DNA of 38,276 nt. It comes from Dehalococcoidia bacterium. GTDB lineage: Bacteria; Chloroflexota; Dehalococcoidia; Dehalococcoidales; RBG-16-60-22. Location of the stretch: assembly GCA_041489355.1 (NCBI GenBank), contig JBGPRB010000003.1, forward strand, positions 1 through 38,276. The letters are read 5' to 3'. A program made the translations under genes and the position numbers. Of the stretch, positions 1 through 23,225 are shown in pieces (position 1 is the stretch's first letter; each line of letters starts with the position of its first letter). The notes under the pieces were generated by a model that made no database searches, had not been told where the DNA came from, and saw only the letters and a list, made by a program, of their open reading frames with translations.

Positions 1-42
1 CTATCATTCCATGTTAATAACGGAAATCTTAGGAGGTTATAA
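1..42 (+). CDS. 3' end of an upstream gene (partial, ...LSFHVNNGNLRRL*)
   Basis: Open frame 1 ending in TAA at 40-42, directly abutting the ATG at 43; AT-rich like the next gene. Confidence 0.45.
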   Translation, partial: LSFHVNNGNLRRL

Positions 43-378
43 ATGAAAAAACATTTTAAGCTTTCTGATTACACTGTTACTTATTCAACTAGGGCAAAAG
101 GCGATGAAATTGCATATACTTTGAAAGACTTTGTGAAGACATTAAATAATGATGATTATCTTGTTATAGATTTTGATGGAGTAAAGGCTGTCAGTTATTC
201 ATTTTTAGACCAATTCTTTAGTAACATAATTACATGTGACTTATTGAAAGAAAAAGAAATATCTATTGCCGGTTGGTCTCAAAACTTACTGTCAATTATA
301 GATAAATCGTTACAACATAGAAATTGTGACTACTCAGAATCTAAGAGCGAGCGAAGATTGGTCTGCCAATCCAAATAA
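43..378 (+). CDS. STAS-like (DUF4325-type) domain protein
   Basis: Motifs STRAKG and LVIDFDGVKAVSYSFLDQFF typical of DUF4325; SD AGGAGG upstream; markedly AT-rich. Confidence 0.75.
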   Translation: MKKHFKLSDYTVTYSTRAKGDEIAYTLKDFVKTLNNDDYLVIDFDGVKAVSYSFLDQFFSNIITCDLLKEKEISIAGWSQNLLSIIDKSLQHRNCDYSESKSERRLVCQSK

Positions 379-417
379 ACTCGTTTTACAATTATCGTAG
401 ATATAGTCATATTGGCA

Positions 418-448
418 AAGGGGAGCGCTACCGCTCCCCTTGTTTTTT
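418..448 (+). terminator. Hairpin AAGGGGAGCG-CTAC-CGCTCCCCTT plus T-tract (terminator / REP-like family A)
   Basis: Perfect 10-bp stem followed by GTTTTTT downstream of the 43..378 gene; related copies at 581-604 and 1101-1124. Confidence 0.65.
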
Positions 449-481
449 ATCAGTGGGGGAGGGGTAAGGGAGTAGCTTGCG

Positions 482-552
482 AAGAGGGGCGACAGCCCCT
501 CTTTCTTTTGCTTCCCCCTTCCCGGCGGGAAGGGGGATAAAGGGGGATGGGG
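482..552. repeat. REP-like composite palindrome (AAGAGGGGC-N-GCCCCTCTT followed by CCCCCTTCCC...GGGAAGGGGG...AGGGGGATGGG)
   Basis: Same architecture recurs at 31772-31847 and 32391-32466; first hairpin also at about 38108-38128. Confidence 0.7.
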
Positions 553-656
553 CAAGAATGACAGGTGTGGTGGGGGGAAAAAGGGGGGTGGTAGCGCTCC
601 TCTTCTTTTTTGTGATAATATAGAGTCGAGAAAAATCAGAGAAGGGAGAAAAGTAC

Positions 657-1079
657 GTGGTAAAAATAGGGATTATACGTTGTTACGAGAATAGCGAAAG
701 GTGCGCGGGGTGGAACTGTTTCCCGGCAATGGCGAATAAGACGGGAGAGTTCGCGAAGTACGACACGATAGAAATCGTGGGGTTTGACACGTGCGGGGGC
801 TGCGGGCACGGCAAGGCCGACAAGATATTGAAAAACGCCAAGAGACTCAAGGAAAAAGGCGCCGAGGTCATACATCTAGGGAATTGCATAGCAAGCGATT
901 GTCCATCGAAAGACATATACATAAAAGCGTTGCGAAAGAGTATGAAAATACCGATAGTGGAGAAGACACACGGGGGGCCGTCTCCTGCGCAAATGGCAGC
1001 CTATAGGGCAGCTGCGGAGGCAAAGAAGGCGAAAGCCGCGGAAGCCAGGAGAGCCAGTCGGGCGAAGGCGAAAAAATAA
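657..1079 (+). CDS. CGGC domain metal-binding protein with Ala/Lys/Arg-rich C-terminal tail
   Basis: KIGIIRC...CAGWNC...TCGGC...IHLGNC...CP...TH pattern; GTG start with AAGGGAG SD. Confidence 0.85.
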   Translation: MVKIGIIRCYENSERCAGWNCFPAMANKTGEFAKYDTIEIVGFDTCGGCGHGKADKILKNAKRLKEKGAEVIHLGNCIASDCPSKDIYIKALRKSMKIPIVEKTHGGPSPAQMAAYRAAAEAKKAKAAEARRASRAKAKK

Positions 1080-1100
1080 GAGATCATAGGGAGGGGGGAA

Positions 1101-1131
1101 AAGGGGAGCGGTGACGCTCCCCTTATTTTTT
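1101..1131. terminator. Probable bidirectional terminator AAGGGGAGCG-GTGA-CGCTCCCCTT between convergent genes
   Basis: 10-bp perfect stem with T-tract on the right and A-tract on the left, between the CGGC gene and mscL. Confidence 0.65.
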
Positions 1132-1148
1132 ACCAGAGACTAAAAAGC

Positions 1149-1625
1149 TCAGGCAGGTCTGAGTTCCGAAGTGCAATGGGGGCAGCGAACGGCCTTGAGG
1201 GGAATGGCGGTGGCACAGTAAGGACAGTCTTTGGTCGCGGGGGCTGCGGCGGCCGCTTCAATCGCTTTCTTTGTTTCCAGGGCTTTTCTAGCCTTATTTA
1301 CCAGGCGCACAACCATGAATACAGCAAAGGCAACGATGATGAAAGCGATTATAGTGTTGATAAAGACACCGTAATTAAAAGTAACAGCACCGGCGGCCTG
1401 GGCATTGGCCATGGTGTGATAAGGTGGTGGGGTGGTCGCGCCATTTCTGATTACCACAAACAGATTCGTGAAATCTACTTTGCCTAATAACAGGCCGATG
1501 GGCGGCATGATAATATCTTTAACCAGGGAATTTACGATTGTGCCAAAAGCGGCACCGATGATGATACCTACAGCCAGGTCGAGCACATTACCGCGCATAA
1601 CAAAGTCTCTGAATTCCTTAAACAT
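1149..1625 (-). CDS. mscL: Large-conductance mechanosensitive channel MscL with C-terminal zinc ribbon
   Basis: [44 protein letters not shown]; C-terminal CPYC...CPHC. Confidence 0.95.
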
Positions 1626-1776
1626 GATTAATTCTCCTTCAAGGCATATAGTATCACTATAGTATTTATTCTATTAAATGTTGTCAAATACTTTTACGTA
1701 TTCATGTAATGTAAGTAGCGCTCCCCTAATTTTTTGTGTATTATTTAGTCGATGAAATTTTAAAGGAGGATGAAAC

Positions 1777-2487
1777 GTGGCGCAAAAAGGACTGGAAGCT
1801 AAAGTGGCGGTGATGGAGAAAGAGCTGACAAGGCTGAAGGACATCGAGGCGATACGCAAGCTGGAACATGCCTACAGCTTTTACCTGGTGATGTGGATGC
1901 CGGATGAAATTATCGACCTGTTTTCCTGGAGGGACGACACGACGCTGGAATGGCCGGAGGGGACGTTCTACGGCAAGGACGGCCTGAAACGGTTCTTCGG
2001 GAACATCAATCCGAAGAAGGACCCGGAGTTCATGCACCAGATGATGCACCTCTCCGACGTCATCGACATCGCCGAGGACGGCAAGACCGGCAAGGGGCGG
2101 TGGTGGGGATTTGGGGCGATGGCGCTTCCCATGGGCGACTCAGGCATCAATCAGGCGCTAGCCTGCGGCATCTATGAAAACGATTTCATTAAAGAGGACG
2201 GCATCTGGAAGCTCTGGAAAATAAAGTGGGTGCCAGTGTACTCGGGGACGCCGGCAAGGGGGTGGGTCAAAGAGGAGCGACTGGCCAAGCCGAGACCGCA
2301 GACAAAACCGCAAAAAGAGGGAGAAGTAAGTGTACCGACCTGGTGGAAGCCCGATAAGCCTGCCAAGGGCATCGCGTATTCGTACCCATCAGGATACATT
2401 TTGCCTTTCCACTTTAAGCACCCGGTGACAGGAAAGAAGACCACTGAAGAAAAGAGAAACGCGAGAGTAAAGGGAGTGAAGAAGTAA
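1777..2487 (+). CDS. SnoaL-like / NTF2-family protein
   Basis: L..L.DIEAIRKL...Y, DGKTGKGRW, YENDFIKEDGIWKL motifs; SD AAGGAGG and GTG start. Confidence 0.85.
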   Translation: MAQKGLEAKVAVMEKELTRLKDIEAIRKLEHAYSFYLVMWMPDEIIDLFSWRDDTTLEWPEGTFYGKDGLKRFFGNINPKKDPEFMHQMMHLSDVIDIAEDGKTGKGRWWGFGAMALPMGDSGINQALACGIYENDFIKEDGIWKLWKIKWVPVYSGTPARGWVKEERLAKPRPQTKPQKEGEVSVPTWWKPDKPAKGIAYSYPSGYILPFHFKHPVTGKKTTEEKRNARVKGVKK

Positions 2488-2705
2488 GGGGAAAAAAACT
2501 AAATTCCAAGCTCTAAATACTAAACCCCCTCTCCCTTTCACCCAAGGCGGATTAGTTGTAATATTCTATTTTTTACCTCACTTCATGGCCGTTTCTCCTT
2601 TCGAGGTTATCAAGGGAGGTGGATATTTTCCGAGAGGGTGCGGTGACATCATCGAGCTATACGCTTTCTGCAAGGGACGCTATGGTAATTTACAGATAGG
2701 CTTTC

Positions 2706-2734
2706 TTGACGGAATGTAAAGAGAGGTTTAAATT
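2706..2734 (+). promoter_or_regulatory. Putative sigma70 promoter of the SDR gene
   Basis: TTGACG-N17-TAAATT. Confidence 0.45.
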
Positions 2735-2797
2735 AAACTGAAAGCGGACAGGATAAAATCATTTTCAGGCTATTTGAAAGGCATGAAGGGAGATGCA

Positions 2798-3805
2798 ATG
2801 AAAAACCTGCTGGATACAGCCACGCTTACCATGGACAAAACCGGCTTGCTTAAAAATTCGATGGAGGGGGATGTGGCAGTAGTCACGGGCGGCGCGGGCA
2901 CCATCGGACTAGCTGTTTCTCGAAGCCTGGCATGGCTCGGGGCAAAGATAGTCATCGCGAGTAGAAATACACAAACCGGGGAGGCGGCCGCAGAATTCAT
3001 CGACCACGAGAATAAACCCGGCACGGCGCTCTATGTCCCGACGGATGTTTCCGATGAAGAGAGCATGAAAGCCATGGCTAAAGCGGCGTTTAAGGCTTTT
3101 GGAAAAGTGGATATCCTGGTGAATAACGCCATGGATATGTCACTGGGAGCCTCGATTTTGAAAACATCGGCAGCAGCTTTAGATAGACAATATGAGATAG
3201 CCGTACGCGGCGCGCTTCTCGGAATACAGGCATTCGTGCCCGGCATGGTCGAGCGACATCACGGCGTGGTAACTTATATAGCCACTGCCTTCCGCTATCC
3301 GTCAGGTCCCGGCAACTATTGCGCCGTAAAGGCTGCCACCAGTTCTATGATGATGTCTCTGGCGGCTGAGCTGGGTCCGGTCAAAGATACCGGTGTGGCC
3401 GTGTTTATGTATGTCCCGACACTGGTGGGAAGGCCGCGGCGTTCTGATGCAGATGTGAGCCGCGGGGGTACTTTCATGCTGCCACCAGCGATTATCGGGT
3501 ATGGGCGCGGTCCGATACCTCCTGAGGATTGCGGGGCGACTCTTGCCTACTGTATCGTTCATGCTGCCGATATTCACGGTTCGGGGGTAAATGCCGGACA
3601 AGCCCAAAAACGCATGAATTGGCCTTTCCCCGAACCTGACACAGTGCCAGGCAAAGATTTCGACCGTATCAGAGACCAGGTTATGGTACGTATGTTCGGC
3701 TACGTGGGGCCCGGCTGGCCGGATAAAATAGAGCCTCTGGTGACCGTCAACCGTTCTGAAGCTCCGCCTGATGAGCCGCTGGGGATTACGGCGCTGATGG
3801 GGTGA
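2798..3805 (+). CDS. Short-chain dehydrogenase/reductase (SDR) family oxidoreductase
   Basis: TGGAGTIG nucleotide-binding loop, VDILVNNA, catalytic YCAVK; ATG 2798 follows AAGGGAG (ORF open from 2774). Confidence 0.9.
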   Translation: MKNLLDTATLTMDKTGLLKNSMEGDVAVVTGGAGTIGLAVSRSLAWLGAKIVIASRNTQTGEAAAEFIDHENKPGTALYVPTDVSDEESMKAMAKAAFKAFGKVDILVNNAMDMSLGASILKTSAAALDRQYEIAVRGALLGIQAFVPGMVERHHGVVTYIATAFRYPSGPGNYCAVKAATSSMMMSLAAELGPVKDTGVAVFMYVPTLVGRPRRSDADVSRGGTFMLPPAIIGYGRGPIPPEDCGATLAYCIVHAADIHGSGVNAGQAQKRMNWPFPEPDTVPGKDFDRIRDQVMVRMFGYVGPGWPDKIEPLVTVNRSEAPPDEPLGITALMG

Positions 3806-3833
3806 GGGAGGGGGGAAGAGGGGAGGGGCAATA

Positions 3834-3914
3834 AAATCCCTCTTACTCTCCCCTTCGACAGGCTCACTTCGTGGTGACTCAGTGGAACCAGGGCAGGCCC
3901 TTTACAAAAGCGAA
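3834..3914. repeat. REP-like element apparently interrupted by nested CTTCG...CTCAG elements
   Basis: Flanks match 38008-38041 (AAATCCCTCT.A.TCTCCCTTTAC.AAAG.GA) once about 3853-3900 is removed. Confidence 0.55.
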
Positions 3915-3974
3915 AAGAATCTATGGTATAATTATTTAAATATTTAATGACATATCACATTCGGGGGAAGAACT

Positions 3975-4208
3975 ATGCAATTAACAGCAATAGTCAGGAA
4001 AGGTGAAAAGCAATACGTAGCTTTGTGCCCTGAAGTAGACGTAGTCAGCCAGGGTCATACGGTGGAGGAAGCGTTGAGCAATTTAAGGGAGGCGGTAGAG
4101 CTTTATATAGAGGAAATGGGGCTTCCGGAAGGCGTAGGGGAAGAAGAGTTAATTATTACTCATTTCGGGGTTAAAAGTGCCAAAACTACCGGTCGTGTCA
4201 GGGCGTGA
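3975..4208 (+). CDS. hicB: HicB family antitoxin (short form, no DNA-binding domain)
   Basis: YVALCPEVDVVSQGHTVEEALSNLREAVELY signature. Confidence 0.9.
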   Translation: MQLTAIVRKGEKQYVALCPEVDVVSQGHTVEEALSNLREAVELYIEEMGLPEGVGEEELIITHFGVKSAKTTGRVRA

Positions 4209-4407
4209 ACTAATCCGGATTCTGGGAAAAGCGGGGTTTACACCGGCTCGACGGAGAGGAAGCCACGTTGTTCTGGTAAAGACAGACAAAAGCGGAAAGC
4301 GCGCCGTCGTGGTACCTGACCACAAAGAAATAGATAAAGGAACATTGGTTGAAATAATCCGGCAGGCTGGGCTTAAAAGAGAAGAATTTTTTAAGCTGCT
4401 GAAATAA
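4177..4407 (+). CDS. hicA: HicA family toxin (mRNA interferase)
   Basis: PKLPVVSGRELIRIL...GF...RRGSHV...VVVPDHKEIDKGTL..I signature; overlaps hicB. Confidence 0.9.
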   Translation: MPKLPVVSGRELIRILGKAGFTPARRRGSHVVLVKTDKSGKRAVVVPDHKEIDKGTLVEIIRQAGLKREEFFKLLK

Positions 4408-4527
4408 GTTACAGCGACATGATGAATGAGATGAAGAAGTAAAATTATAAGCACTTAGCTTCAAATATTGAACCACGGCTCCTTTTCCCCCGCAAGGGTG
4501 GGGGAAGGCGGGAAATCATCCGTTCTA

Positions 4528-5688
4528 TTACACATCCAGTCCCAGCAGCATTTTCAGCCTGATTTTAAGCATGTTCCACCGGCCAACTTTGCGGGACATG
4601 ATTTTCATAAAGGTAGTGTCCTTATCTTTCGGAGGGACAAAGGCATTATCTTTTTTATGGAGTCGGCTGGCATGAGATTCACAGGTGACGACGCAATTGC
4701 CGCAGCCGATACACCGGTCGAGGTTGACAGCAGCAACATTATTAACGATGGTACGCGCTTGAAGCTGGCAGCGCTTAACGCAGGTGCCGCAGCCCCTGCA
4801 TAAAGCGGGGTCGACTTCGGCATAGTAATTGGTGGCATAAAGGTCGGCGGGGCGGGGGGACTTTACTACAGCGGAGAGGAGTCCACAGCAGTCGCCGCAG
4901 CAACAGCAGATTGCCTCCGGACGGAGCGAATTTTCCGGCTGGAGGATAAATCCCGCGTGCTGAGCTTTTTCCAGTATATTAAAAGCTTCTTCTTTAGTGA
5001 TATAGCGGGCAATCCCCATCTCAACGTACTGGCGGGCGTGGTCCGTTCCTATCTGTAAACAGGTCTCGCGGATATCAGAGTGGGTGCAGGGCTGTCCCTG
5101 TATGTCTTTGGTCTGGCGGCAGACGCAATTGGCTACCGCGATGGGGCCGGCGGCATTTTCGACAAGCTGACGTACATCATCATAGGTGCTGACCAGGTGC
5201 TTATCCGGGACGGGGATGCTTTTTTCAACCGGGATAGTACGGAGCTGGGGAACTCCCCGCGAGCCGGTCATTTCCGCCCGGGCGAACACCTCGACGTGAT
5301 ATTGATGGAAGGTATCCACGAGGTCTTTAGTGAGCCGGTTTACCTGAAAGTCCACGATGCCGCCGGCGGTAACCCCGGCGTTTTTATAGCGTTTTTCCTT
5401 ATAGCTTGCCCGGTATATCAGGACGGTGCCTTTATAAGCCATGCGGTCGAGAATTATCTGAAGCTGTTCGAGAGATGTCACCAGTCCGCTTTTTTTAGCG
5501 CGACGATAAATGCGTCCGGCAGGTTCCAGCTTGATAGTGGAAAGCTGTGTGGCTATCTGCGCTTCTTCCGGGGTGAACAGGTGCTTCAGCAGGCTAATAT
5601 CGATACCCGATGGAGTGGAGGGATAGCCGACCGGCCCCTTATCAAGATGCTGCTGCAGGTTGCGATATATTTCAGTACCGGTATCCAA
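4528..5688 (-). CDS. 4Fe-4S dicluster domain protein (Cys-rich)
   Basis: CVCR, CCCCGDCC, and two ferredoxin motifs CRGCGTCVKRC and CIGCGNCVVTC; TTG start after GAGGA. Confidence 0.85.
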   Translation of the reverse strand: MDTGTEIYRNLQQHLDKGPVGYPSTPSGIDISLLKHLFTPEEAQIATQLSTIKLEPAGRIYRRAKKSGLVTSLEQLQIILDRMAYKGTVLIYRASYKEKRYKNAGVTAGGIVDFQVNRLTKDLVDTFHQYHVEVFARAEMTGSRGVPQLRTIPVEKSIPVPDKHLVSTYDDVRQLVENAAGPIAVANCVCRQTKDIQGQPCTHSDIRETCLQIGTDHARQYVEMGIARYITKEEAFNILEKAQHAGFILQPENSLRPEAICCCCGDCCGLLSAVVKSPRPADLYATNYYAEVDPALCRGCGTCVKRCQLQARTIVNNVAAVNLDRCIGCGNCVVTCESHASRLHKKDNAFVPPKDKDTTFMKIMSRKVGRWNMLKIRLKMLLGLDV

Positions 5689-5824
5689 GATATTTTCCTC
5701 TTAACAGGGATTAAGAATGGGCGGTTAATGGATACTGTAAGTAGTTGAGTTGAGTTTGTCAAATTCTGCTCTGAATTGACTTAAACAGGTTCTGAGAGTA
5801 ACCGGGGTCTGCTTTATCGAAGAA

Positions 5825-5902
5825 CCCCCTCTCCTCCGGGAGGCAGGGTCCGAAAGAGAGGGGGTAACAGGGGTCCTTCTAAGAAGGACAGGGGGATTAG
5901 GT
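5825..5902. repeat. REP-like palindrome CCCCCTCTC...GAGAGGGGG...AGGGGGAT with an internal GTCCTTCT-A-AGAAGGAC hairpin
   Basis: Inverted repeats seen directly; related to 512-552. Confidence 0.55.
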
Positions 5903-5922
5903 AAGGGGCAAGCAGTATTCAA

Positions 5923-7692
5923 TTAGTAATAGAAAGCGGTCCTCCTGCCCATCCAGAAGCCGAAGAGGAATATTAGCACAACGCCGACGCCGATGGTCGC
6001 GTATAGCAGCCAGCCGGTGAATTTAAACGGTTGGGCGATAGAGAACTGGCCGGCACCGGTCCAATCGCTTTCGTTCAGGGCGGCATCTACGGCTTTGATT
6101 CTCCAGAACAAGGAGGATTCCTGACCGGCCAGCTTGAGCTCCTCGGCTTCGGTTAAAATATATTCAGATTTACTTAGAGCTGTTTTATCCAGGATGATAG
6201 AACTGGCGGAAAAATCCGAAGCGGAGGCAACCTGCAGATAATAGGAAACAGGAGAGCTATTATCGGTAACACTTGCCCAGGTGAAGGTTATCGGCGTCTT
6301 AGCCTTTACGCCCATCTCCGGCTTTTCCGGTTGCGGTACTTTAGGCGGCACTGATTCCACCGTGAAAGTAATTTTACTGGTATGGGGGCCATCGCTGGCG
6401 GTGATGGTATGGTCTCCGTGTTTACCGGTTGGCACCGGGAAGATATTGCTCATAAAGGTCCCGTTGGCTCCAGCCTTGCCCGTGGCTATTTCCTTATCAT
6501 CATACTTGACGGATATATTGGCATTAGGCGAAAAACCAGTGCCGCCCACCATAAGAGGTTGCCCGACAGCGCCAGTAGTCTGGCTAATGCTGAGGGGGGT
6601 TGTAGAGGGTGCAGGTGCTGGCGCCGGTGCGGGTGTGGGAGCAGGTGCTGGCGTGGGCGTGGGTGTGGGTGATGGGGTGGGTGTTGTGACATTGAAAGTA
6701 ACATTGGCGGTACTGCTCCCAGCGGTAACGTAGATGGCATGGGGACCAGCAGTGCTTTGCGGGATGGTGAGAGTGCTGATAAAGACTCCGCTGGTGCGCG
6801 TAGCCGCATCCCCCGTTTTTGGTGAAATTGTCGTAGTATCATATTTAAAGATAATGGGCGTGCTGACCGGGAAGTTGGTACCGCTAATCGTCACCTCTGT
6901 GCCAGCTGGTCCCGAGGTAGGCAAGAGCGTGTCAATGGTGGCAGCGGCGGTTACGGTGAAAGTGGCAGTGACTGTGCTGGTTCCTACAGTAATAGAAATG
7001 GTATGAGCGCCGGGTGTACTTGAAGGTATGGTGATGGTGCTGATAAAGATGCCACTGCTGCGAGTTGACATGTCTCCTGATTTGGGTGCAATTGCCGTTT
7101 CATCATATTTGAAGAGGATGGGGGAGCTGACGGCGAAGTTAGCACCGCTAATTGTTACGTCAGTGTTAGCCGGACCCGAGGCAGGCGAAAGCGGGTCAAG
7201 GGTGGCGCCGGGGATAACAGTAAATTGGGCATAAGTTCGGATAAGAATCCAATCAGTTTGTGTCGGAGGAGCAGTGTATTCCAGGCTAACATAAACGTAA
7301 TAATTTGTACCTGGCGTTACGGTGCTAGTGCCTATGGTACTGGGCACGGTAAAGGTATATCCAAACTCGCCGGTATCGGAAGTTGCGCCATCTCCTTCGT
7401 CAATTTCTGTACCCTCATGTAATAAAGTATAGTGGGTGATTTGATTATTAATATAATATGTTCCTGTCTGTGGCGGGTCACTGGAAAAGTACAAATTAAC
7501 ATATCTTATGGCACTTTCCGTAGACCTAGTAAAACCAGAGCCGATAACTGAAATTCTGTCGCCGACCTTACCCTGTAACGGATTTAAATTAATGGTTTTT
7601 GCTGCTAGAACCGGTATGGCCGGTATGACCGCCATCAAAAGGGACAGGATAAGTGCCGTCCCGAATATTCTAAAAATTCTTTTGTATTTCAT
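5923..7692 (-). CDS. Membrane-anchored surface protein with IPT/TIG Ig-like repeats, Pro-rich linker and FN3-like domain
   Basis: N-terminal signal peptide (..PAIPVLA|A); repeated L.P.SGP.GT.VTISG.NF units; (TP/AP)n linker; FWRIKAVDAALNESDW; C-terminal TM helix followed by RR. Confidence 0.85.
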   Translation of the reverse strand: MKYKRIFRIFGTALILSLLMAVIPAIPVLAAKTINLNPLQGKVGDRISVIGSGFTRSTESAIRYVNLYFSSDPPQTGTYYINNQITHYTLLHEGTEIDEGDGATSDTGEFGYTFTVPSTIGTSTVTPGTNYYVYVSLEYTAPPTQTDWILIRTYAQFTVIPGATLDPLSPASGPANTDVTISGANFAVSSPILFKYDETAIAPKSGDMSTRSSGIFISTITIPSSTPGAHTISITVGTSTVTATFTVTAAATIDTLLPTSGPAGTEVTISGTNFPVSTPIIFKYDTTTISPKTGDAATRTSGVFISTLTIPQSTAGPHAIYVTAGSSTANVTFNVTTPTPSPTPTPTPAPAPTPAPAPAPAPSTTPLSISQTTGAVGQPLMVGGTGFSPNANISVKYDDKEIATGKAGANGTFMSNIFPVPTGKHGDHTITASDGPHTSKITFTVESVPPKVPQPEKPEMGVKAKTPITFTWASVTDNSSPVSYYLQVASASDFSASSIILDKTALSKSEYILTEAEELKLAGQESSLFWRIKAVDAALNESDWTGAGQFSIAQPFKFTGWLLYATIGVGVVLIFLFGFWMGRRTAFYY

Positions 7693-7811: not shown

Positions 7812-8018
7812 TCACTTTATCAATCTTTTCCTGGCACCGACTTTCGGATTATAGGTGCCGGCGAAGTTATCCAGGGTATCCTTGTTGATGAGCCAGGTGT
7901 TGTGAATCTTGTTCGCCGGCAAATCGCCCTGACGGCATAGCCGTTTTACAGTTTCCGGATGAACCTTAAGGCGGCGACTTGCCTCTATGACATTAAGATA
8001 ATTATCCCATATCGGCAT
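7812..8018 (-). CDS. Excisionase-family (HTH_17) small DNA-binding protein
   Basis: YLNVIEASRRLKVHPETVKRLCRQGDLPANKIHNTWLI matches the MerR-like/Xis HTH pattern. Confidence 0.85.
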   Translation of the reverse strand: MPIWDNYLNVIEASRRLKVHPETVKRLCRQGDLPANKIHNTWLINKDTLDNFAGTYNPKVGARKRLIK

Positions 8019-8046: not shown

Positions 8047-8092
8047 ATTGCTTTATCAAAGCAATTATAACAATTGTGAGCACAAATGTCAA
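8047..8092 (-). promoter_or_regulatory. Consensus sigma70 promoter of the HTH_17 gene with overlapping inverted repeats
   Basis: TTGACA (8092-8087)-N17-TATAAT (8069-8064) with extended TG; palindromes ATTGCTTT-ATC-AAAGCAAT (8047-8065) and TTGTG-AG-CACAA (8074-8085). Confidence 0.75.
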
Positions 8093-8123
8093 GGGTGTGC
8101 GCCAAAAAAGTGACAAAACTCCA

Positions 8124-8153
8124 TTGACGGTAATAGAACATATGTGCTATTCT
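8124..8153 (+). promoter_or_regulatory. Promoter of the capsid cluster with a LexA (SOS)-like box in the spacer
   Basis: TTGACG (8124-8129)-N18-TATTCT (8148-8153) with extended TG; AATAGAACATATGTGCTATT (8132-8151) is a 20-bp palindrome with one mismatch, containing GAAC-N4-GTGC. Confidence 0.7.
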
Positions 8154-8181
8154 TACTCTGTTTGGTTTTTAGAGGTGCGTT

Positions 8182-8505
8182 ATGGATTTGGTGCATGAGA
8201 TTTGCGGAGATGCCCCGGAAGAGACGAACAAGGAAACCAACCAGAATGAAACAGACTTACCGCCGGAATACTGTCACTATCGAGATGAGGGGTGTGAATA
8301 CGCCCAATCCTGTCTGGCATGTCCGTTCCCACAGTGCCTGTACGATGAGCCAAGGGGAAGGCAGCGCTGGCTTAAAGAATTACGCAACAAGGAGATAAAA
8401 AGACTTTTTACCGCAAACTGGAAAATTAAGGAACTGGCTTTGCTATTCGGTGTCAGCCTGAGGACGATACAGAGGGCGTTGAAGAGTGAGGTAAGTGGGA
8501 AGTAG
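8182..8505 (+). CDS. Cys-rich protein with C-terminal helix-turn-helix (sigma70 region 4-like); probable cluster regulator
   Basis: CHYRDEGCEYAQSCLACPFPQC followed by IKELALLFGVSLRTIQRAL; SD GAGGTG. Confidence 0.75.
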   Translation: MDLVHEICGDAPEETNKETNQNETDLPPEYCHYRDEGCEYAQSCLACPFPQCLYDEPRGRQRWLKELRNKEIKRLFTANWKIKELALLFGVSLRTIQRALKSEVSGK

Positions 8506-8611: not shown

Positions 8612-9958
8612 ATGAAAGGCTATAAAGAACTGCTGGATTTCTATTTCGGACAGCAGTGGGAAGGCCGGGGGAGGCGGAACGAAAGGCGCCTGACATTTAA
8701 CTATGCCAAAGTATTTGTCGAGAAAATTACATCATATTTAATGGGAGGCATCAGCTTTGACGTCGTCCCATCCGGAGATACGGACAAGGAGAGGGAAAGC
8801 GCCAGAAGGGCGGAGGCCGCCATTTATAGAGTCTACGATCAGAGCCACCTGGAGCAACTCGACCTCGAGACGGAAACAGACTGCGCGGTGCTGGGTGACG
8901 GCTGCTATAAAGTTATCTGGGATGCGGTGGAGAAGAGGGTCAGGGTGACCGCTCCCGATGTCCAGGGTATATATGTATGGTGTTCCGGTGATGATACCTC
9001 AAGGATATGGAGGATAGCTTCCCGGTACAGGCTGTCCGCCGAAGAGGTGGAAAATATTTACGGCGTGAAACCCAAGAATAAGACAGCGGTGATAGTGGAG
9101 CTATGGACAGACCATGACTTCGAGCTGTATCTGGATAATGCTTTGCTGGAAGCTAAGCCAAATCCTTACGGATTTATTCCATTTGTCGTTTTCCCCAATC
9201 TTCGCGAACCGAAGAAGTTCTGGGGAGCCTCCGATTTGCCCCAGATAATGGAGAGCCAGCGAGAGCTGAACCGCGCCATGAGCCAGCTATCGCGCATACT
9301 GGAGCTGTCCGGGAACCCCATCGCCGTCCTGGAGAACGTGGAGGAGTCCGAGGATATCGCCATCAGGCCGGGGGCGGTATGGAATATCCCGGAGGATGCC
9401 AAAGCCTATCTGCTCGACCTGCTGCAGGGGGGCGGCGTAAATCTCCATATCAACTACATTGACCTGATATACCGCGCCCTGCACGATTTATCCGAGAGCC
9501 CGAGGTCTGCCTTCGGCGGTATGGAAAGGAACCTGTCCGGGGTAGCCCTTGAGATTGAGCTCCAGCCGTTGCTGCAGAAGGTCAGGAGAAAGAGGATTAT
9601 CAGAACAGCCGCCTATAACCGGCGTAATGAGATGATACTCAGCCTTCTGGAGAAATACGGAGGTGAGAATTTCGGTCCTTCAGCCGAAGGACATACGCGA
9701 GTTATCTGGGGGACGATACTGCCCAGGGACATGGAGACAAGAGTGAACAGCGAACAGGTCATGGTGCAGAACGGAATACACTCCCGGAGAACGGCCATGG
9801 GGGAGGTGGGGGTGAGGGACCCCGATTACGAATTCCAGCGGTGGCTGGAGGAGAGGGAGTCCATTCTTAAGATGAACAGAGAGCTTAACGCTAAATCCGC
9901 CAGGAGCGGAGCGAGAGAGAGTGCTTTACCGTACCGGGCGGAAGGCGTTGAGGAGTAA
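8612..9958 (+). CDS. Phage portal protein (SPP1 gp6-like); an upstream in-frame ATG at 8564 is cut off by TAA at 8582
   Basis: DFY.G.QW, LTFNYAKVFVEK..SYL, NPYGFIPFVVFPN, SGVAL motifs; about 450 aa; position before scaffold and capsid. Confidence 0.85.
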   Translation: MKGYKELLDFYFGQQWEGRGRRNERRLTFNYAKVFVEKITSYLMGGISFDVVPSGDTDKERESARRAEAAIYRVYDQSHLEQLDLETETDCAVLGDGCYKVIWDAVEKRVRVTAPDVQGIYVWCSGDDTSRIWRIASRYRLSAEEVENIYGVKPKNKTAVIVELWTDHDFELYLDNALLEAKPNPYGFIPFVVFPNLREPKKFWGASDLPQIMESQRELNRAMSQLSRILELSGNPIAVLENVEESEDIAIRPGAVWNIPEDAKAYLLDLLQGGGVNLHINYIDLIYRALHDLSESPRSAFGGMERNLSGVALEIELQPLLQKVRRKRIIRTAAYNRRNEMILSLLEKYGGENFGPSAEGHTRVIWGTILPRDMETRVNSEQVMVQNGIHSRRTAMGEVGVRDPDYEFQRWLEERESILKMNRELNAKSARSGARESALPYRAEGVEE

Positions 9959-9979: not shown

Positions 9980-10468
9980 ATGGAAAATGAACAGGAAAAG
10001 GTCGATGAGGTGGAGACTAACGGCAGCGAAATTGACAGTCTTAAGCTTGAGAAAGAGTCACTTGCACGTGAGCTTAAGTCCAGAGACGACGCAATCGCCA
10101 AACTGGAGCAGGCGCTGACCGGTAAGGACAGCGAGGTGACGGCCATGAAGCAGGCTCTGGATGATACCACGCAGAAGCTGAAAGATATGGGCGAGGTTCT
10201 ACCCAAAGCGGTCGCCGCCTATAAGGAAATCGTGGCCCAGGCGAACCCCGGCATCCTGGCCGAGATGATAAACGGGGACACAATCGAAGGAATAAACGAG
10301 TCCCTGAAGAATGCCCGGGCTCTCGTGGAAAGGGTCAGGCAGGAAGTGGGGGCGGAAGCTGCCAGGGTAAGGGTGCCGGGTGGCGCCCCGCAGAGGACAC
10401 CGCTGGACATGTCGGCCCTATCGCCACGGGAAAAGATTCAGTACGCCCTGGGGGGTTCGGCGTCCTGA
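9980..10468 (+). CDS. Probable capsid scaffolding protein
   Basis: Acidic coiled coil between portal and capsid genes; short C-terminal helix LSPREKIQYAL; SD AGGAGG. Confidence 0.65.
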   Translation: MENEQEKVDEVETNGSEIDSLKLEKESLARELKSRDDAIAKLEQALTGKDSEVTAMKQALDDTTQKLKDMGEVLPKAVAAYKEIVAQANPGILAEMINGDTIEGINESLKNARALVERVRQEVGAEAARVRVPGGAPQRTPLDMSALSPREKIQYALGGSAS

Positions 10469-10570: not shown

Positions 10571-11491
10571 ATGGCTTTAACTTTAGCAGAAGCATCCAAA
10601 CTATCTAACGATATACTGATGCAGGGAGTGGTGGAGACCATCGTGAAGGACTCGCCGGTTCTCCAGAAGCTGCCCTTTGTCGAAATCGTGGGCAACGGTC
10701 TGACTTATAACCGGGAAAACACCCTGCCCAGTATCGATTTCTATGACGTGGGCGATACATGGACAGAATCGACGCCGACTTTCACACAGGTAACGGCCAA
10801 CCTGAAAATCATGGGCGGCGATGCCGATGTGGACAACTTCCTCAAGGCTACCCGCAACAATGTCCAGGACCTGGTGGCGGCCGTCATCGAGCTGAAGGCC
10901 AAGGCGCTCCAGCAAAAATTCGAGGACACCTTTATCTACGGCGATAGTTCCGTCAACGCCAAGCAGTATGACGGGCTGAGGAAGCTGATAAATACCGGCG
11001 TGGCGGGCAGCCAGGTGATAGCGATGGGGGCTACCGGCGCCACTTTGACCCTGGCCAAGCTGGACGAGCTGATTGACGCCGTAAGGGGCGGCAAGCCCGA
11101 TATGCTGCTGATGAGCCGGCGTTCCCGGCGCAAGATGAATGCCTTGGTCAGGGCGGCCGGTGGCATGATTGAGACCAACCAGGATAAATGGGGCAACTTC
11201 ATCCAGCTCTGGGACGGTGTACCCATCGGCGTGAACGACTGGATTCTGGACACGCATGTCCTCAGCGGCAGCGTGGAAACGGCTACCACCGGCGGCACCT
11301 GTTCCACCATATACGCTGTGCAGCTGGGGGAGGGGGCCCTCTGCGGCCTGACCAGCCCCGGCTACCTGCAGGCTGAGCCCATCGGCTCACTGGAGACCAA
11401 GGACGCCTCCAGGACCAGGGTGAAGTGGTATGTCTCCCTGGCGCTGTTCAGCTCAATCAAGGCAGCGGCCCTTATCGGCGTCCAGGACTAA
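10571..11491 (+). CDS. Phage major capsid protein (HK97 fold, epsilon15 gp7/BPP-1-like)
   Basis: ALTLAEA.KL...GVVE.I...SP.L..LPF..I.GN...YNRE..LP, DVDNF, FIYGD.....YDGL motifs; 306 aa with no delta domain. Confidence 0.88.
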   Translation: MALTLAEASKLSNDILMQGVVETIVKDSPVLQKLPFVEIVGNGLTYNRENTLPSIDFYDVGDTWTESTPTFTQVTANLKIMGGDADVDNFLKATRNNVQDLVAAVIELKAKALQQKFEDTFIYGDSSVNAKQYDGLRKLINTGVAGSQVIAMGATGATLTLAKLDELIDAVRGGKPDMLLMSRRSRRKMNALVRAAGGMIETNQDKWGNFIQLWDGVPIGVNDWILDTHVLSGSVETATTGGTCSTIYAVQLGEGALCGLTSPGYLQAEPIGSLETKDASRTRVKWYVSLALFSSIKAAALIGVQD

Positions 11492-12130: not shown

Positions 12131-14101
12131 GTGGCGGAGATAGAAAAGGTAACCGATCCGACTAAAATGGTCACCGACCCCGTAGTGCTTGACGTGTTAG
12201 CGAAGCAGAAGATAGATAAAGATTACGTCCTTCTGCTGCAGGATTACGGCAAGCGTATCAAAGGTGTCAGCTCACCCTATGCCAGGTTTTACCGTGACCT
12301 GAAGTCCGGAAAGGGGCTGATGGTTGTCTCCGGACTGCCGATGGTTGACGCCTACGGGTTCGGGCATGAGTTGCAGTGGACGGATAAGAACGGCGTCATC
12401 GAGAACGGCAACAATATCTTCCACAGCGCTATCGATAAAGGTGCGGTACGCCTGATTGCCCTCAGCGACCAGCCAAACGGAGCGAAAAAGGACGACGAGG
12501 TAAACTTTCATCCGCAGCTATTCATTAGTGGTGTGGAGATTCTGCCTTTGTCGGATATGCCCAAGTTACTGGAGACCGACTCCATCAATGAGAACTACCA
12601 TTACAATGTCCTTGAATGGGACTTTGGAGTATGTCTGCGCAGGGTCAGACTAATTGAGGGACGTTTTCTCGGTTCATGGGTGTTCTTGACCAACCCTAAA
12701 GGCGATGTCCTTATCAAGTATAATCAGTCTGGCAAACTTAAGTTGCGACTCCAGTATGCTAGAGACGAAGATACAGAATTTGTACCGAAGGAGTTTTTTT
12801 ACGAGGCCGAGGCATATCCCCTCACTATCTCGGATAACCTTACATTCTATCCTGACGCTGACCCTGAGACTTCTTCTGTTGATGGGAGAGTACAGCAAGC
12901 CTCCACAAATATTGCCTGGGGCACTCTTGTGGGTGCTGCGGGTTCCCAGGCTTACCCTTCTGAGGCTTCCAGCGATATACGATTTTTAGCTGGCTCGACA
13001 ACTGACCTCTGGGACCGTATTTATCGTCTCATTACTCTTTTTGATACCAGCAACCTGCCCGATACTGCCAGCATATCTGCCGCTACACTTTCCCTGCATG
13101 GTAAGGTGGGTAAAACGGACGGATGTTTAGCAACTCCGACTGTTAATGTATATTCGTCTAATCCTGCCAACAATAATAACTTGGTAGCAGCAGACTACGC
13201 TACTCTAGGCACAACCGCCTTTTGTGATTCTCCAATTGCGTATGCCGATTGGGTTGAGGGTGGAACTGCGAATATTTACTACAATGACTTTGCACTCAAT
13301 GCGTCAGGTATTGCGGCCATAAGCACAATTGGAGTGTCCAAGTTTGGTTTCCGCTTCAACTATGACGCAACCAGTACCGCACCTAATTGGGTATCAGTAG
13401 GTTCAACCCTCATATCAGTTTATACGACAGAGAAAGGTGCAGGGTTCCAGCCCAAACTGGTGGTGACTTATAGCTCTACCATCGAGAAAATCTCATCGGA
13501 AACCGGCTCGGGGGCTGAGGTGATAACATCGGGCAATCCCATTGTCGTGACGAGCGGCGCGGAGGCAGGTTCCGGGTTAGAATCTCTAGGAAGCCGTGAC
13601 CTGGGGCAAATCGAAACAGGTTCCGGGTTAGAATCTTTAGGAAGCCGTGATCTGGGGCAAATAGAGACAGGTTCCGGGTTAGAATCTCTGGAAAGCCGTG
13701 ATCTGGGGCAAACCGAGGCAGGTTCCGGGTTAGAATCTCTAGGAAGCCGTGACCTGGGGCAAATCGAAACAGGTTCCGGGTTAGAATCTGTCGGGAGCCG
13801 TGATTTTGGGCAAACCGAAGCAGGGTCAGGGCTTGATATTTCCTCTCTTTTGGCGGCATTTACAGGATATGACATTGGTTCAGGCATGGAAGCAGCTCTT
13901 AAAATTGCTGCTTTCATCTCAGGCGATGGGGGGGTCGGCTCAGAACTCAGCTGGATGCTGAAAGAAGCCCTGGCGGGTGACAGAGGCGGTGGTTACGATG
14001 CCCTGAAGGCCCTGATAAAGGCAGCGGGTTCGGGCTCTGATATGAGATTAACCATCCACCAGGGCCAGGTGGCCAGACCTAACAAGGAGGTAGATTTATG
14101 A
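12131..14101 (+). CDS. Large mosaic virion protein (fibre/adhesin-like) with central DNRLRE-like domain and C-terminal 17-aa repeats
   Basis: GTG 12131 after GGAG (ORF open from 12119); LFDTSNLPDTASISAATLSL...PKLVVTY; repeats GSGLESLGSRDLGQIET; ATGA overlap with next gene. Confidence 0.6.
   Translation: MAEIEKVTDPTKMVTDPVVLDVLAKQKIDKDYVLLLQDYGKRIKGVSSPYARFYRDLKSGKGLMVVSGLPMVDAYGFGHELQWTDKNGVIENGNNIFHSAIDKGAVRLIALSDQPNGAKKDDEVNFHPQLFISGVEILPLSDMPKLLETDSINENYHYNVLEWDFGVCLRRVRLIEGRFLGSWVFLTNPKGDVLIKYNQSGKLKLRLQYARDEDTEFVPKEFFYEAEAYPLTISDNLTFYPDADPETSSVDGRVQQASTNIAWGTLVGAAGSQAYPSEASSDIRFLAGSTTDLWDRIYRLITLFDTSNLPDTASISAATLSLHGKVGKTDGCLATPTVNVYSSNPANNNNLVAADYATLGTTAFCDSPIAYADWVEGGTANIYYNDFALNASGIAAISTIGVSKFGFRFNYDATSTAPNWVSVGSTLISVYTTEKGAGFQPKLVVTYSSTIEKISSETGSGAEVITSGNPIVVTSGAEAGSGLESLGSRDLGQIETGSGLESLGSRDLGQIETGSGLESLESRDLGQTEAGSGLESLGSRDLGQIETGSGLESVGSRDFGQTEAGSGLDISSLLAAFTGYDIGSGMEAALKIAAFISGDGGVGSELSWMLKEALAGDRGGGYDALKALIKAAGSGSDMRLTIHQGQVARPNKEVDL
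13566..13834 (+). repeat. In-frame 51-bp tandem repeat, 5 full copies plus a degenerate sixth
   Basis: Units start at 13566, 13617, 13668, 13719, 13770, 13821; units 1 and 4 are identical. Confidence 0.95.
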
Positions 14102-14730
14102 ATTTAACCGAGATGATATCCCTGGTCAGGAGTGACCTGCACGATGAAGCCAGCGGCAATTATCGCTGGTCGGACGCCGAGCTCACCAGGCACATCAACC
14201 GGGCGGTGGCGGAGCTTTCCGAGGGCCTGCCCCTGCCGGCTAAAGCTACCCTGCCCACGGCGGCCGGTTCGAGAGAACTCGATATCTCTGGCCTATCTGA
14301 CCGGATAATGGTTGCCGCCGTGGAGTATCCGGTGGGGTCCAGCCCGCCAGATTATCAGCAGTTTTCCATCTGGGGCGACATGCTGACTATCGTGAGCGGC
14401 AGCCTGCCCGAAGGCTCTAACTGCTATGTTTATTACGGCGTCCGGCATACCCTGGATGACGAGGGTTCGACAATCCCGGTTAAGTACGAGGATTTGGTCG
14501 CCAGCGGGGCCTGCGGTTATGCCGCCATCGAGTGGGCAGCCTATGCTATCAACCGGGTCAATGTGGGGGGTACGGTAACGCCCAGGGAGTTCCTCGACTG
14601 GGGAAACCAGAAACTCAAAGATTTCCGGCAGGAGTTGAGACGGCTGGGGAGGCGAAATCGTATCAGGATAAGCTCTCTTTACAGCCTCTATAATCACGCC
14701 GCCTCCACGTCAATTGACTACGGCCCTTAA
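14098..14730 (+). CDS. Probable head-tail adaptor / head-completion protein
   Basis: MNL.EM...VR..L.D......RWSDAEL..HINRA N-terminus typical of phage adaptor proteins. Confidence 0.65.
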   Translation: MNLTEMISLVRSDLHDEASGNYRWSDAELTRHINRAVAELSEGLPLPAKATLPTAAGSRELDISGLSDRIMVAAVEYPVGSSPPDYQQFSIWGDMLTIVSGSLPEGSNCYVYYGVRHTLDDEGSTIPVKYEDLVASGACGYAAIEWAAYAINRVNVGGTVTPREFLDWGNQKLKDFRQELRRLGRRNRIRISSLYSLYNHAASTSIDYGP

Positions 14731-14754: not shown

Positions 14755-16758
14755 ATGCGTACATTGACGTCGACATTACTGGCCGCCCAGAAGCAGGAAG
14801 CTTCGATTCCCTGTGCTAAGATTGAAGCCGTAAGCAAGATTACCGGCGTGGTCAGGTACGATTGGTCCAGACTTTATGATGGCTCCGAACCTGACTACTT
14901 TCATGCCCTGACGATGCCCGGCGATGGCTCCCTGGTCAGGGCCAGGATAACACTGCCCGCCGATTCCAGGAAGCTCTACCGCCAGCGGGTGGCTAACCCC
15001 GGCCCGTGGAGCGACTTCAGCCAGTGGACCTATACCAGCCAGTATAATGCCGTCGTGGCGGCGGCGGCTTCCCTGGGGGCTGAAGTCTCGATATTCTGGA
15101 TAAACACCAGCCGGGAAATCAGGCGCATCAAAAGCACGGACTACGGTGTGAACTGGGGCAGCCCCGAGCTTATCGATTATTCACCGACAACCGCTATTTA
15201 CGGCCTGGCGGCCGCTTATAAGCCCGGCGGCAACCTGGCAATCTTTTTCGCTGACCAGTCGACCCTGTATGTCAAGAAGAATATCAGCGGGGCGTGGCAG
15301 ACGAAGGCGGCCTGGGATAAGGCGACCGGTAGTCTATCGGGTATCGCCGGCGCCTACGATGGCGACTGGAATCTGCTGGTCACCGGCAAAGATACGGCGG
15401 GAAACTACAAGCTATGGAGCCTGGTATATGGGGACGGCGGGGATGTCGCCATCGGTAGCTGGTCAGTCCTGAAAGAGCTTGCCTCGGCCCCTTCCGGCGG
15501 CGATTTCGAGTATAAACAGCCGTTCCTCGATAGGACGGACGTTTATCGCTGTTTCTTTATCGAGAAGTTCGCCGGCACCGAGGCTTACAGCCGTCCTTTC
15601 CGGTCTCAGGCTGTTCCCGGTGCGCATTTTGTCGATGGCCTGTGGCGGGAGCCGGCGCCGTTCAATCTATCTTCGGATTATGGTCTGGCCATGGCTCATT
15701 ACGGCGATTATGGCTGGTTTTCCAGTCCTGATAGCGTCTGGAGAGCTTCACTGACCGCCAGCAGTCTTGACCTGACGGCGGACGTCATCAGCGTCAGGCA
15801 GGAACTGGGTAAGACTTCGGGCGGTTTAACCGTGGAGTTGAGGAATGATGACGGGAGGTATGCATCTCCGGGGCAGGGTGACCTGGCGGCCATGGACATC
15901 GGCTGCCAGCTGGAGTTCAGTCCCGGCTGCATAACTGCTAATGGCAGCGAGTACAGTAGCGGACTGAGCTTTTACCTCGAATCTCTGGAGCACACCAGCG
16001 CCGGCGGCAGGGCCAGTCTAATTCTTCACGCCAGGGACGGCTGGGGGGCGCTGGGTGACTGGAAAGCCAGACACCAGTTCCGCTGGAACAAGACCTCTGA
16101 CGACATGTGCGTAAAGGATATTATCGCGGTTATTCTGGCCAGGGTGGGTCTGAAGCTGGAGGTAAAATCACAGTCATCGACGATAACGGGGTTTTACCCG
16201 GATTTCACGTTAAATCCAGATGACAACGGCAGGGCGGTGATAATTAAGCTGCTGTCTTTCGTTCCCGATGTATTATTTATCGAAGGTAATAAGGCTTATA
16301 TCGTCAACCCGCTGTCTTCCGATGGTACGGAATACAGTTATGGCGTCGAGCACCAGATTAAAGAGGGCAGGTACGGGCGGGGAGCCTTGGGAATTAACAG
16401 GGTACAGGTCGAGGGGTATGATACCGGCACCAGCCATTTAATACTGGTGAATAGCTTCGCCTGGAGTGAGATAGACCGACTTTACGACCGGCTGTACCAG
16501 ATTGAGGATAGGAATTTAAATAGCGTGGACGAGGCCCAGCAGCGCGGGCAGGCTCATTTAAGGCAGATGGAGATAGAAGCGACTGAGGGCATGATTATAG
16601 TTCCGGTGAACTGCGGGCAGCAGCTATATGACGTCATCGATGTGACCGATACGCGGGCCGGACTTGATGCGGTAAAGAAAAGAGTCCTGGGACTGGTCCT
16701 GGTTTATAATCCTCAGCGCGGCGAATACTTCCAGCGTCTGGAGCTGGGAGGGGTATAG
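14755..16758 (+). CDS. Putative tail tip / baseplate hub-like virion protein
   Basis: Beta-rich 667 aa with a BNR-like STDYGVNW motif; C-terminal INRVQVEG...EA..R....L......G...VP.N...QLYDVI.V resembles hub/Tal folds (inference). Confidence 0.5.
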   Translation: MRTLTSTLLAAQKQEASIPCAKIEAVSKITGVVRYDWSRLYDGSEPDYFHALTMPGDGSLVRARITLPADSRKLYRQRVANPGPWSDFSQWTYTSQYNAVVAAAASLGAEVSIFWINTSREIRRIKSTDYGVNWGSPELIDYSPTTAIYGLAAAYKPGGNLAIFFADQSTLYVKKNISGAWQTKAAWDKATGSLSGIAGAYDGDWNLLVTGKDTAGNYKLWSLVYGDGGDVAIGSWSVLKELASAPSGGDFEYKQPFLDRTDVYRCFFIEKFAGTEAYSRPFRSQAVPGAHFVDGLWREPAPFNLSSDYGLAMAHYGDYGWFSSPDSVWRASLTASSLDLTADVISVRQELGKTSGGLTVELRNDDGRYASPGQGDLAAMDIGCQLEFSPGCITANGSEYSSGLSFYLESLEHTSAGGRASLILHARDGWGALGDWKARHQFRWNKTSDDMCVKDIIAVILARVGLKLEVKSQSSTITGFYPDFTLNPDDNGRAVIIKLLSFVPDVLFIEGNKAYIVNPLSSDGTEYSYGVEHQIKEGRYGRGALGINRVQVEGYDTGTSHLILVNSFAWSEIDRLYDRLYQIEDRNLNSVDEAQQRGQAHLRQMEIEATEGMIIVPVNCGQQLYDVIDVTDTRAGLDAVKKRVLGLVLVYNPQRGEYFQRLELGGV

Positions 16759-16783
16759 GCATTGTCTGAAGGGGGCACGGGAA

Positions 16784-16996
16784 ATGAGGTTGAAGAAAGC
16801 GGAGCTAAGGAGTTTTAATTCCGGCAATTACACGGCTACTGTCCGACTTGCCAGCAGCTATAAGGTCTACCTGGAGGATGTAGCTGTGGCCAGGAATCTG
16901 ACGTCAGCGGAAATGATTACAGGACGGAAGGTTGCCGTGATATTTTTTGATGAGAATAGCCCCAAGGAAGCGGTGGTGGTGGCGGTCTATACTTAA
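16784..16996 (+). CDS. Small protein, possible OB-fold spike/tip component
   Basis: ATVRL......LEDVAV......GRKVAVIFFDENSPKEAVVVAVY resembles gp5/gpV N-terminal OB folds; last gene of the cluster. Confidence 0.5.
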   Translation: MRLKKAELRSFNSGNYTATVRLASSYKVYLEDVAVARNLTSAEMITGRKVAVIFFDENSPKEAVVVAVYT

Positions 16997-23196: not shown

Positions 23197-23225
23197 ATTA
23201 TAATTTGCCAATTGGCAAATGTCAA
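23197..23225 (-). promoter_or_regulatory. Consensus promoter of the XRE gene with a perfect 18-bp operator palindrome
   Basis: TTGACA (23225-23220)-N17-TATAAT (23202-23197); ATTTGCCAATTGGCAAAT at 23203-23220. Confidence 0.8.

Follow-up and report, generated by a model that had tools for sequence, protein, structure and literature searches.

The DNA analysed here (the window, 38,276 nt) is the entire contig C3 of a bacterium of the order Dehalococcoidales, whose assembly comprises 2.77 Mb in 280 contigs and is 75% complete. Flanked on both sides by ordinary cellular genes (MscL, a short-chain dehydrogenase, a ferredoxin-domain protein, a two-component system), it carries a cluster of phage-type head and tail genes. 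The capsid operon runs from a small HTH protein, p107, through portal, major capsid protein and head-tail adaptor to tail-protein candidates, while an HTH_17 gene and a gene for a 589-aa protein lie on the divergent side (Table 1). The ORFs scanned in window positions 1-28900 yielded no integrase, replication or CI-like family; several of the cluster proteins are without a family.

Table 1. Genes and promoter elements of the capsid operon and of its divergent side, in window coordinates.
Feature	Position	Strand	Evidence or remark
589-aa cluster protein	5923-7692	-	17/20 loci
68-aa HTH_17 (excisionase-like) DNA-binding protein	7812-8018	-	Pfam HTH_17, E 1.4e-10; 8/20 loci
17-bp palindrome TTGCTTTATCAAAGCAA, directly after the divergent -10	8048-8064	.	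kept in 16 aligned HTH_17-carrying loci
Divergent consensus promoter of the HTH_17 gene, TTGACA-17-TATAAT	8064-8092	-	12/12 hexamer matches, TG
GACAAAA element upstream of the -35	8112-8118	+	common to capsid and terminase promoters
-35 hexamer TTGACG	8124-8129	+	letters and promoter consensus scan
AATAGAACATATGTGCTATT, 20-bp one-mismatch palindrome, predicted LexA (Cheo-type) operator	8132-8151	.	matrix score and conservation
Extended -10: TG (8145-8146), one base, TATTCT	8145-8153	+	overlaps right half of the predicted operator
RBS GAGGTG, 4 nt before the ATG at 8182	8172-8177	+	kept in family f1 loci
p107, 107-aa Cys-rich HTH_23 protein, first gene of the operon	8182-8505	+	Pfam HTH_23, E 6.7e-4
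Portal protein	8612-9958	+	Pfam SPP1_portal, E 1.9e-23
162-aa protein between portal and capsid	9980-10468	+	30-58% identity, 18/20 loci
Major capsid protein, HK97-type	10571-11491	+	Pfam GP7, SU10_MCP, Phage_capsid
Two variable genes, 193 aa and 660 aa	11507-14101	+	each in some families only
Head-tail adaptor, SU10-type	14098-14730	+	Pfam SU10_adaptor, E 9.7e-10; 19/20 loci
667-aa tail-protein candidate and conserved 70-aa gene	14755-16996	+	18/20 and 17/20 loci

The capsid operon, its promoter and the terminase module

A homologue of p107 occurs in all of 30 orthologous loci and in 19 of 20 distant ones; its weak match to PHROG 836, a family named 'late transcriptional activator' (E 3.1e-6), makes a role as late activator possible. 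The 162-aa protein, for which no Pfam family reached the cut-off, would by its position alone be the scaffold. The capsid protein is 70-93% identical in 19 of the 20 loci. For the 193-aa protein there is a match to PHROG 23653, a family of unknown function (E 6.9e-46), and a weak one to a tail-fibre family, a lead according to which this gene and its 660-aa neighbour might encode tail fibres or receptor-binding proteins. The 667-aa protein belongs to an Atlas cluster named 'phage tail protein', for which Sipho_Gp37 is a lead (0.92).

The promoter of the operon has a TATTCT hexamer (8148-8153) that is separated from the -35 by an 18-nt spacer (8130-8147), and it scores 9 of 12 hexamer matches in the consensus scan, with TG present. 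The initial annotation had read TTGACG-N18-TATTCT with an extended TG at this place, and within it a 20-bp palindrome with a single mismatch whose core is one base away from AGAAC-N4-GTTCT; the same letters, palindrome and core were recovered here, and the consensus scan returned the same promoter. The core, AGAACATATGTGCT at 8135-8148, reads AGAAC-ATAT-GTGCT. Its location between -35 and -10 is one where bound LexA would block RNA polymerase.

The terS-like and terL genes are found on a different contig, C160 (4930-6949), together with a twin of the box. That terS-terL and the capsid cluster are separate loci was considered and dropped for the host genome, as comparison with a genome of the same genus shows that the end of C160 adjoins the start of the window with a gap of about 0.4 kb. 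The terminase promoter thus precedes the capsid promoter by some 10 kb, and cargo genes lie in between. These (window 1-5700) are cellular-looking (CGGC, MscL, SnoaL, SDR, HicB-like and a ferredoxin-domain protein) and occupy the space between the terminase and capsid modules in the host genus only. In one single-contig relative, the two clusters are about 675 kb apart.

The host LexA motif and its sites in the genome

The assembly encodes one LexA, on contig C63 at 5701-6339 (TIGR00498 at 167.9 bits; Pfam LexA_DNA_bind and Peptidase_S24), whose Ala-Gly cleavage site, Ser and Lys can be aligned with the corresponding residues of E. coli LexA. No other protein of this 75%-complete assembly reaches the S24 cut-off and no CI-like S24 repressor was found, so that a CI/Cro-type prophage switch was rejected; given the incompleteness, a second repressor could be unassembled. 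A perfect AGAAC-N4-GTTCT lies 31 nt upstream of the host lexA gene. Among the lexA promoters of 30 relatives the box occurs in 28 when up to one mismatch is permitted and in 29 with up to two, and it is also present upstream of lexA in 19 of 19 loci from families f19, f10, f44 and f36. The lexA gene's own box is the same across the order; in genus g73 of family f10, 7 of 9 lexA boxes score below 14 bits. For LexA of Dehalococcoides, a GAAC-N4-GTTC box has reportedly been described.

A symmetrised 20-nt weight matrix was constructed from the lexA boxes of 28 relatives, from which the host's own genome and all phage-like sites were excluded, and was scanned over all 2,769,984 bases of the host assembly. 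The highest score (26.1 bits) was obtained for the promoter of an operon that encodes an imuB-like Y-family polymerase and a DnaE-type polymerase, and the second highest (22.3 bits) for lexA itself. Rank 3 is the capsid-promoter site (19.5 bits), which matches the LexA core at 7 of 8 bases, and rank 4 (18.6 bits) is the twin site, located 153 nt before terS in the terS-terL promoter. Ranks 5-9 all fall inside ORFs and score at most 16.5 bits. An intergenic site on contig C116 (13.8 bits), found before a molybdopterin oxidoreductase gene, was taken as a chance match.

The imuB-dnaE2 cassette is an SOS operon. In the host (contig C216, 651-4735) it has the best LexA site of the genome, a perfect box lying between TTGACA and TATAAT, and thus shares the geometry of the capsid promoter, where the box also falls between -35 and -10. 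As predicted from their boxes, lexA, imuB-dnaE2 and the two particle operons are the whole recognisable SOS regulon of the 75%-complete assembly.

The gene recA, a textbook SOS gene, reaches only rank 31 (10.3 bits). Its promoter (contig C29, around position 3253) has a weak site with two core mismatches, which overlaps TGTGCTATTAT and is conserved in family f1, the recA promoters of this family matching the box in the TGTGCTATTAT part only. As a two-mismatch site at rank 31 that overlaps an extended -10, it was dropped as a source for the motif. With this exception, the supposition of the initial annotation that host SOS genes use the motif seen at the capsid promoter holds for the genome: the boxes at lexA and imuB-dnaE2 are perfect, and a matrix derived from lexA promoters alone is sufficient to place the capsid site third among 2.77 Mb.

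In 14 genomes of the family, AGAACANNTGTKCTA has 28 matches, as compared to 0 for a reversed control. There are 26 distinct sites, of which 24 precede SOS or particle genes (9 p107-portal, 8 terS, 3 lexA and 4 imuB). The other two belong to an integrase-bearing element of one relative.

Conservation of the box in orthologous promoters

Upstream of the orthologous operon, a box with at most one mismatch is present in 30 of 30 loci. The p107 homologue is in each case preceded by TTGAC, a few bases, and AGAAC-N4-GT(G/A/T)CT running into TAnTnT. A second sample provided 62 evaluable loci. A site of 9 bits or more is present in all of them and one of 12 bits or more in 58, as compared to 0.25% of 2000 random 400-nt segments. 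Over these 62 loci the box carries 1.68 bits per position, compared to 0.11-0.28 in its flanks, so that the palindrome is conserved and its surroundings are not. More distant families (f44, f36, f3, f34 and f4) have retained the box in 11 of 11 loci, and at the terminase promoter it is found in 25 of 27.

The two halves of the box differ in how strictly they are kept. Each column of AGAAC retains its base in 61 or 62 of the 62 loci. The right half has an invariant G, T, C and T, only its third base being variable (G in 44, A in 12, T in 6), and the T-A-n-T-n-T of the -10 is invariant in 60-62 loci. The right half is thus GTGC rather than GTTC in most orthologues, which has to be counted against a LexA operator. 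As the variable base coincides with the -14 G of the TG extension, the imperfect half-site looks like a trade-off with promoter strength.

The wiring is not universal. In f10 genus g73 all 7 of 7 loci have a degenerate box, and in f19 none is present in 2 of 2 loci, although lexA keeps its own box in both families. In f19, the cluster itself has been kept, with a capsid promoter that is devoid of a box.

Overlap with the extended -10 raises the question of whether promoter sequence alone, that is, an extended -10 (TGTGn-TAnTnT) together with a spacer constrained by RNA polymerase, might account for the conservation with no repressor being involved. TGTGCTATTNT is indeed also a good extended -10 and recurs in recA promoters that have a poor left half, from which it follows that part of the resemblance to a LexA box is promoter sequence. 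Also, TGTGCTATTAT is common to the recA promoters of family f1, and the single base of the right half that varies is the very one that serves the TG extension. However, AGAAC lies within the spacer, where sigma-70 has no sequence requirement, and yet its columns are nearly invariant. G9 and C12 of the right half are conserved in 62 of 62 loci, though TGn leaves both of them free and an extended -10 alone does not need them. Furthermore, TG is absent in 18 of the 62 loci, and these retain the rest of the box. We thus regard it as very unlikely that promoter constraints alone have produced the pattern.

A chance palindrome in an AT-rich intergenic region would be compatible with the counts from within the window, which are not significant by themselves. 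AGAAC-N4-GTTCT with up to one mismatch occurs twice where 0.79 are expected, and 18 of 100 shuffled sequences also reach two; there are four 20-bp palindromes with one mismatch, as compared to a mean of 1.2 in 100 Markov-1 simulations. In-window statistics were for this reason left out of the support, which is comparative. A chance origin is extremely unlikely because of the third rank in the entire genome and because the site is kept in all orthologous promoters of both samples with a fixed spacing from -35 and -10.

Two further sites were noted in the window. One is the second one-mismatch match to AGAAC-N4-GTTCT (AGAAACGCGGTTCT, 25174-25187), which precedes a YqeY-like gene by 93 nt; it does not appear in the top 45 of the matrix scan of the genome and was taken as a chance occurrence. 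The other is a 20-bp one-mismatch palindrome (AATTTGCCAATTGGCAAATG, 23202-23221) that probably serves as operator for the Xre-family HTH gene 14 nt downstream of it (22802-23188, minus strand) and has nothing to do with the LexA site.

The intergenic region contains additional conserved elements. GACAAAA is preceded by an A-tract, and on contig C160 it is found about 22 nt before the box. Its GACAA part precedes the box by 22-24 nt in 26 of 30 capsid promoters; in the terminase promoters the distance is 22-23 nt (23 of 24). The mean information of the element is 1.11 bits per position, compared to 0.11 farther upstream. The palindrome behind the divergent -10, TTGCTTTATCAAAGCAA, is probably the operator of a second regulator. 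With this palindrome, GACAAAA, p107 and the HTH_17 protein at hand, other regulators probably act at the locus and control is layered.

A regulator other than LexA, either encoded by the element or by the host (p107, the HTH_17 protein or an unassembled repressor), might then be what binds AGAACA...GTnCT, in which case the likeness to a LexA box would be coincidental or a mimicry. In favour of p107 are its HTH domain, its weak match to late transcriptional activators and its presence wherever the cluster occurs, but f19 has p107 and no box. The HTH_17 gene starts from the same intergenic region, along with the further conserved elements just described, but is missing in 12 of 20 loci, many of which have the box. 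It also speaks for another regulator that the assembly is 75% complete and that the right half does not form a perfect LexA half in most loci. Nevertheless, a matrix trained only on lexA promoters singles out precisely these sites in the genome, and the same class of 15-mer precedes lexA and imuB. On balance we consider binding of another regulator in place of LexA to be unlikely.

The explanation that we favour is that 8132-8151 is a working LexA operator, which we hold to be very probable. The arguments are the identity of the motif with that of host lexA and imuB, the genome rank, conservation, the geometry of the promoter, the presence of an intact LexA and the way in which the cluster is inherited (see below); from these we infer actual LexA binding, repression, induction by damage and the production of particles. 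Among 22 listed sequencing runs, none is an RNA run that contains the stretch. The initial annotation had predicted an operator of host LexA rather than of a phage CI, and this assignment is supported by motif, rank and conservation as well as by the S24 search, which returned LexA as the sole S24 protein of the assembly (75% complete).

Inheritance of the cluster, the proposed switch and related systems

Of 201 genomes of the order, 128 have the portal gene and 143 have TerL; among the 102 high-quality genomes, the portal gene occurs in 76. Each of the two genes is present as a single copy in nearly all cases and is mostly free of internal stops. A core order is shared by 20 loci from 11 families: terS-terL, the 589-aa protein, p107, portal, the 162-aa protein, capsid, adaptor, the 667-aa protein and the 70-aa protein. 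The mean pairwise distance of the capsid proteins (0.21) is close to that of RecA (0.20), and in Mantel tests against RecA the correlation is r 0.70 for the portal and r 0.65 for the capsid (p 1e-4 with 16 genomes, a generous value as kin are non-independent). Among isolated phages, the best relative of the capsid is 41.9% identical, and all 306 records remain below 60%. Domestication, which the initial annotation had favoured, is thus consistent with a cluster that is order-wide, intact, nearly always single-copy and co-diverging with RecA. We conclude that the genomic comparisons support the head and short-tail module as vertically inherited, domesticated phage genes of the Dehalococcoidales.

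Decay is seen in f10 genus g19, whose small closed genomes (e.g. G009) have a cluster with a truncated portal and no capsid match. Both LexA boxes persist in this genus despite the decay.

In the switch that we propose, a LexA dimer bound to AGAAC-N4-GTGCT would fill the spacer and overlap the extended -10 of a sigma-70-type promoter, so excluding RNA polymerase. Upon DNA damage, RecA-stimulated self-cleavage of LexA would free the promoter, and p107, portal, capsid, adaptor and tail genes would be expressed, with the twin operator controlling the distant terS-terL promoter in the same way. Cells of the Dehalococcoidales would, by this mechanism, appear to make virus-like particles in response to an SOS signal. 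A more far-reaching view, which we put forward tentatively and at somewhat less than an even chance, is that the cluster encodes an ancient and independently domesticated DNA-packaging particle resembling a gene transfer agent (GTA), with terminase, portal, HK97-type capsid, adaptor and short tail. Cleavage of LexA would directly trigger its production, damage being the signal for gene transfer or for altruistic lysis, and its two operons would constitute half of a four-promoter SOS regulon (in the 75%-complete assembly).

SOS-inducible particles of phage origin and prophages that borrow LexA are represented by PBSX-type defective prophages, coliphage 186 and the Gifsy phages. In these, LexA acts via a repressor or antirepressor encoded by the element and is not known to act directly on head or terminase promoters, and conservation is at the species level, not at the level of an order as in the Dehalococcoidales.

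The closest analogue is the temperate tectivirus GIL01 of Bacillus thuringiensis which, according to the accessible text of the reports, uses host LexA as the phage repressor (PMC6182141, PMC4551915), LexA repressing early and late promoters including P3 for the virion genes (PMC6182141). Common to both systems, as far as those texts describe GIL01, is that boxes of the LexA type lie inside the promoters of virion genes; a dedicated CI-type repressor is lacking in GIL01, and none was found in the 75%-complete assembly of the host. P3 is described as also needing gp6, a small phage DNA-binding protein, to which p107 and GACAAAA may be a parallel; by this analogy, GACAAAA may be an activator or UP-like site, perhaps for p107. 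The same texts describe GIL01 as a linear prophage that is mobile and replicates itself, with boxes in tandem and gp7 as co-repressor, whereas the cluster of the Dehalococcoidales is chromosomal, nearly always single-copy, order-wide, host-co-diverging and provided with one box per promoter. A mobile, self-replicating phage of the GIL01 type was rejected for the Dehalococcoidales on the basis of the cluster's chromosomal location, copy number and co-divergence with RecA and of phage capsid identities of <60%.

These arrangements are also reminiscent of gene transfer agents. For RcGTA of Rhodobacter capsulatus, the accessible text reports that production depends on LexA, which appears to work through CckA by a mechanism not precisely known (PMC9638019). 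RcGTA and other GTAs, as portrayed there, share with the cluster described here vertically inherited head and tail genes, host regulators and a link to LexA and the SOS response (PMC9638019). The Dehalococcoidales differ from RcGTA in having the predicted operator inside the structural and packaging promoters, in belonging to a Chloroflexota lineage and in the SU10/SPP1-like type of capsid and portal.

The box itself is of a known class. The Gram-positive Cheo-type SOS box is given as CGAACRNRYGTTYC with the core GAACN4GTTC, and as TACGAACATATGTTCGTA for the Firmicutes consensus, in the portion of the source that was available (PMC2248561). Compared to this description, the site has the same type of GAAC-N4-GTTC core with an AT-rich centre (ATAT) and differs in its flanking bases, which are A/T (AGAAC...GTTCT) instead of C/G (PMC2248561), as well as in the third-position G of its right half that doubles as part of the extended -10 TG.

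What we consider to be new is a LexA-type operator, with its function predicted from sequence comparison, on a host-inherited, GTA-like element across an order. Direct control of virion genes by LexA is known for one mobile phage, GIL01, whereas the predicted operator is kept in head and terminase promoters in all families of the Dehalococcoidales that were examined, except f10 and f19. Searches of titles and abstracts, with subscription journals and supplements beyond reach, returned no description of a gene transfer agent in Dehalococcoidia or Chloroflexota, and nothing relevant was found in titles and abstracts on Dehalococcoides prophage, capsid or portal or on a Dehalococcoid terminase. 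If the prediction is true, it would yield a switch that is simple and open to testing for what is probably a new GTA-like system, in a group that matters environmentally and is hard to manipulate, a lineage that includes organohalide respirers, and it could open a route to DNA delivery tools for the Dehalococcoidales. It would also mean that phage-derived genes can form half of the recognisable SOS promoters of a genome.

There are consequences for the annotation of viral sequences. In IMG/VR, 173 contigs that are filed as viral encode related capsids; the 80 of them that were retained have identities of 79-99% and lengths of 2-16 kb. These are probably pieces of the chromosomal element and not free viruses.

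A different type of element was encountered in one relative, G208. On its contig C12, two more promoters that carry a LexA-type box come after an integrase gene, at about 15.3 and 17.9 kb; the former of the two also shows the GACAA and TTGAC layout. To judge from this arrangement, it looks like a mobile element that has the same switch, which hints at an ancestor of the domesticated cluster.
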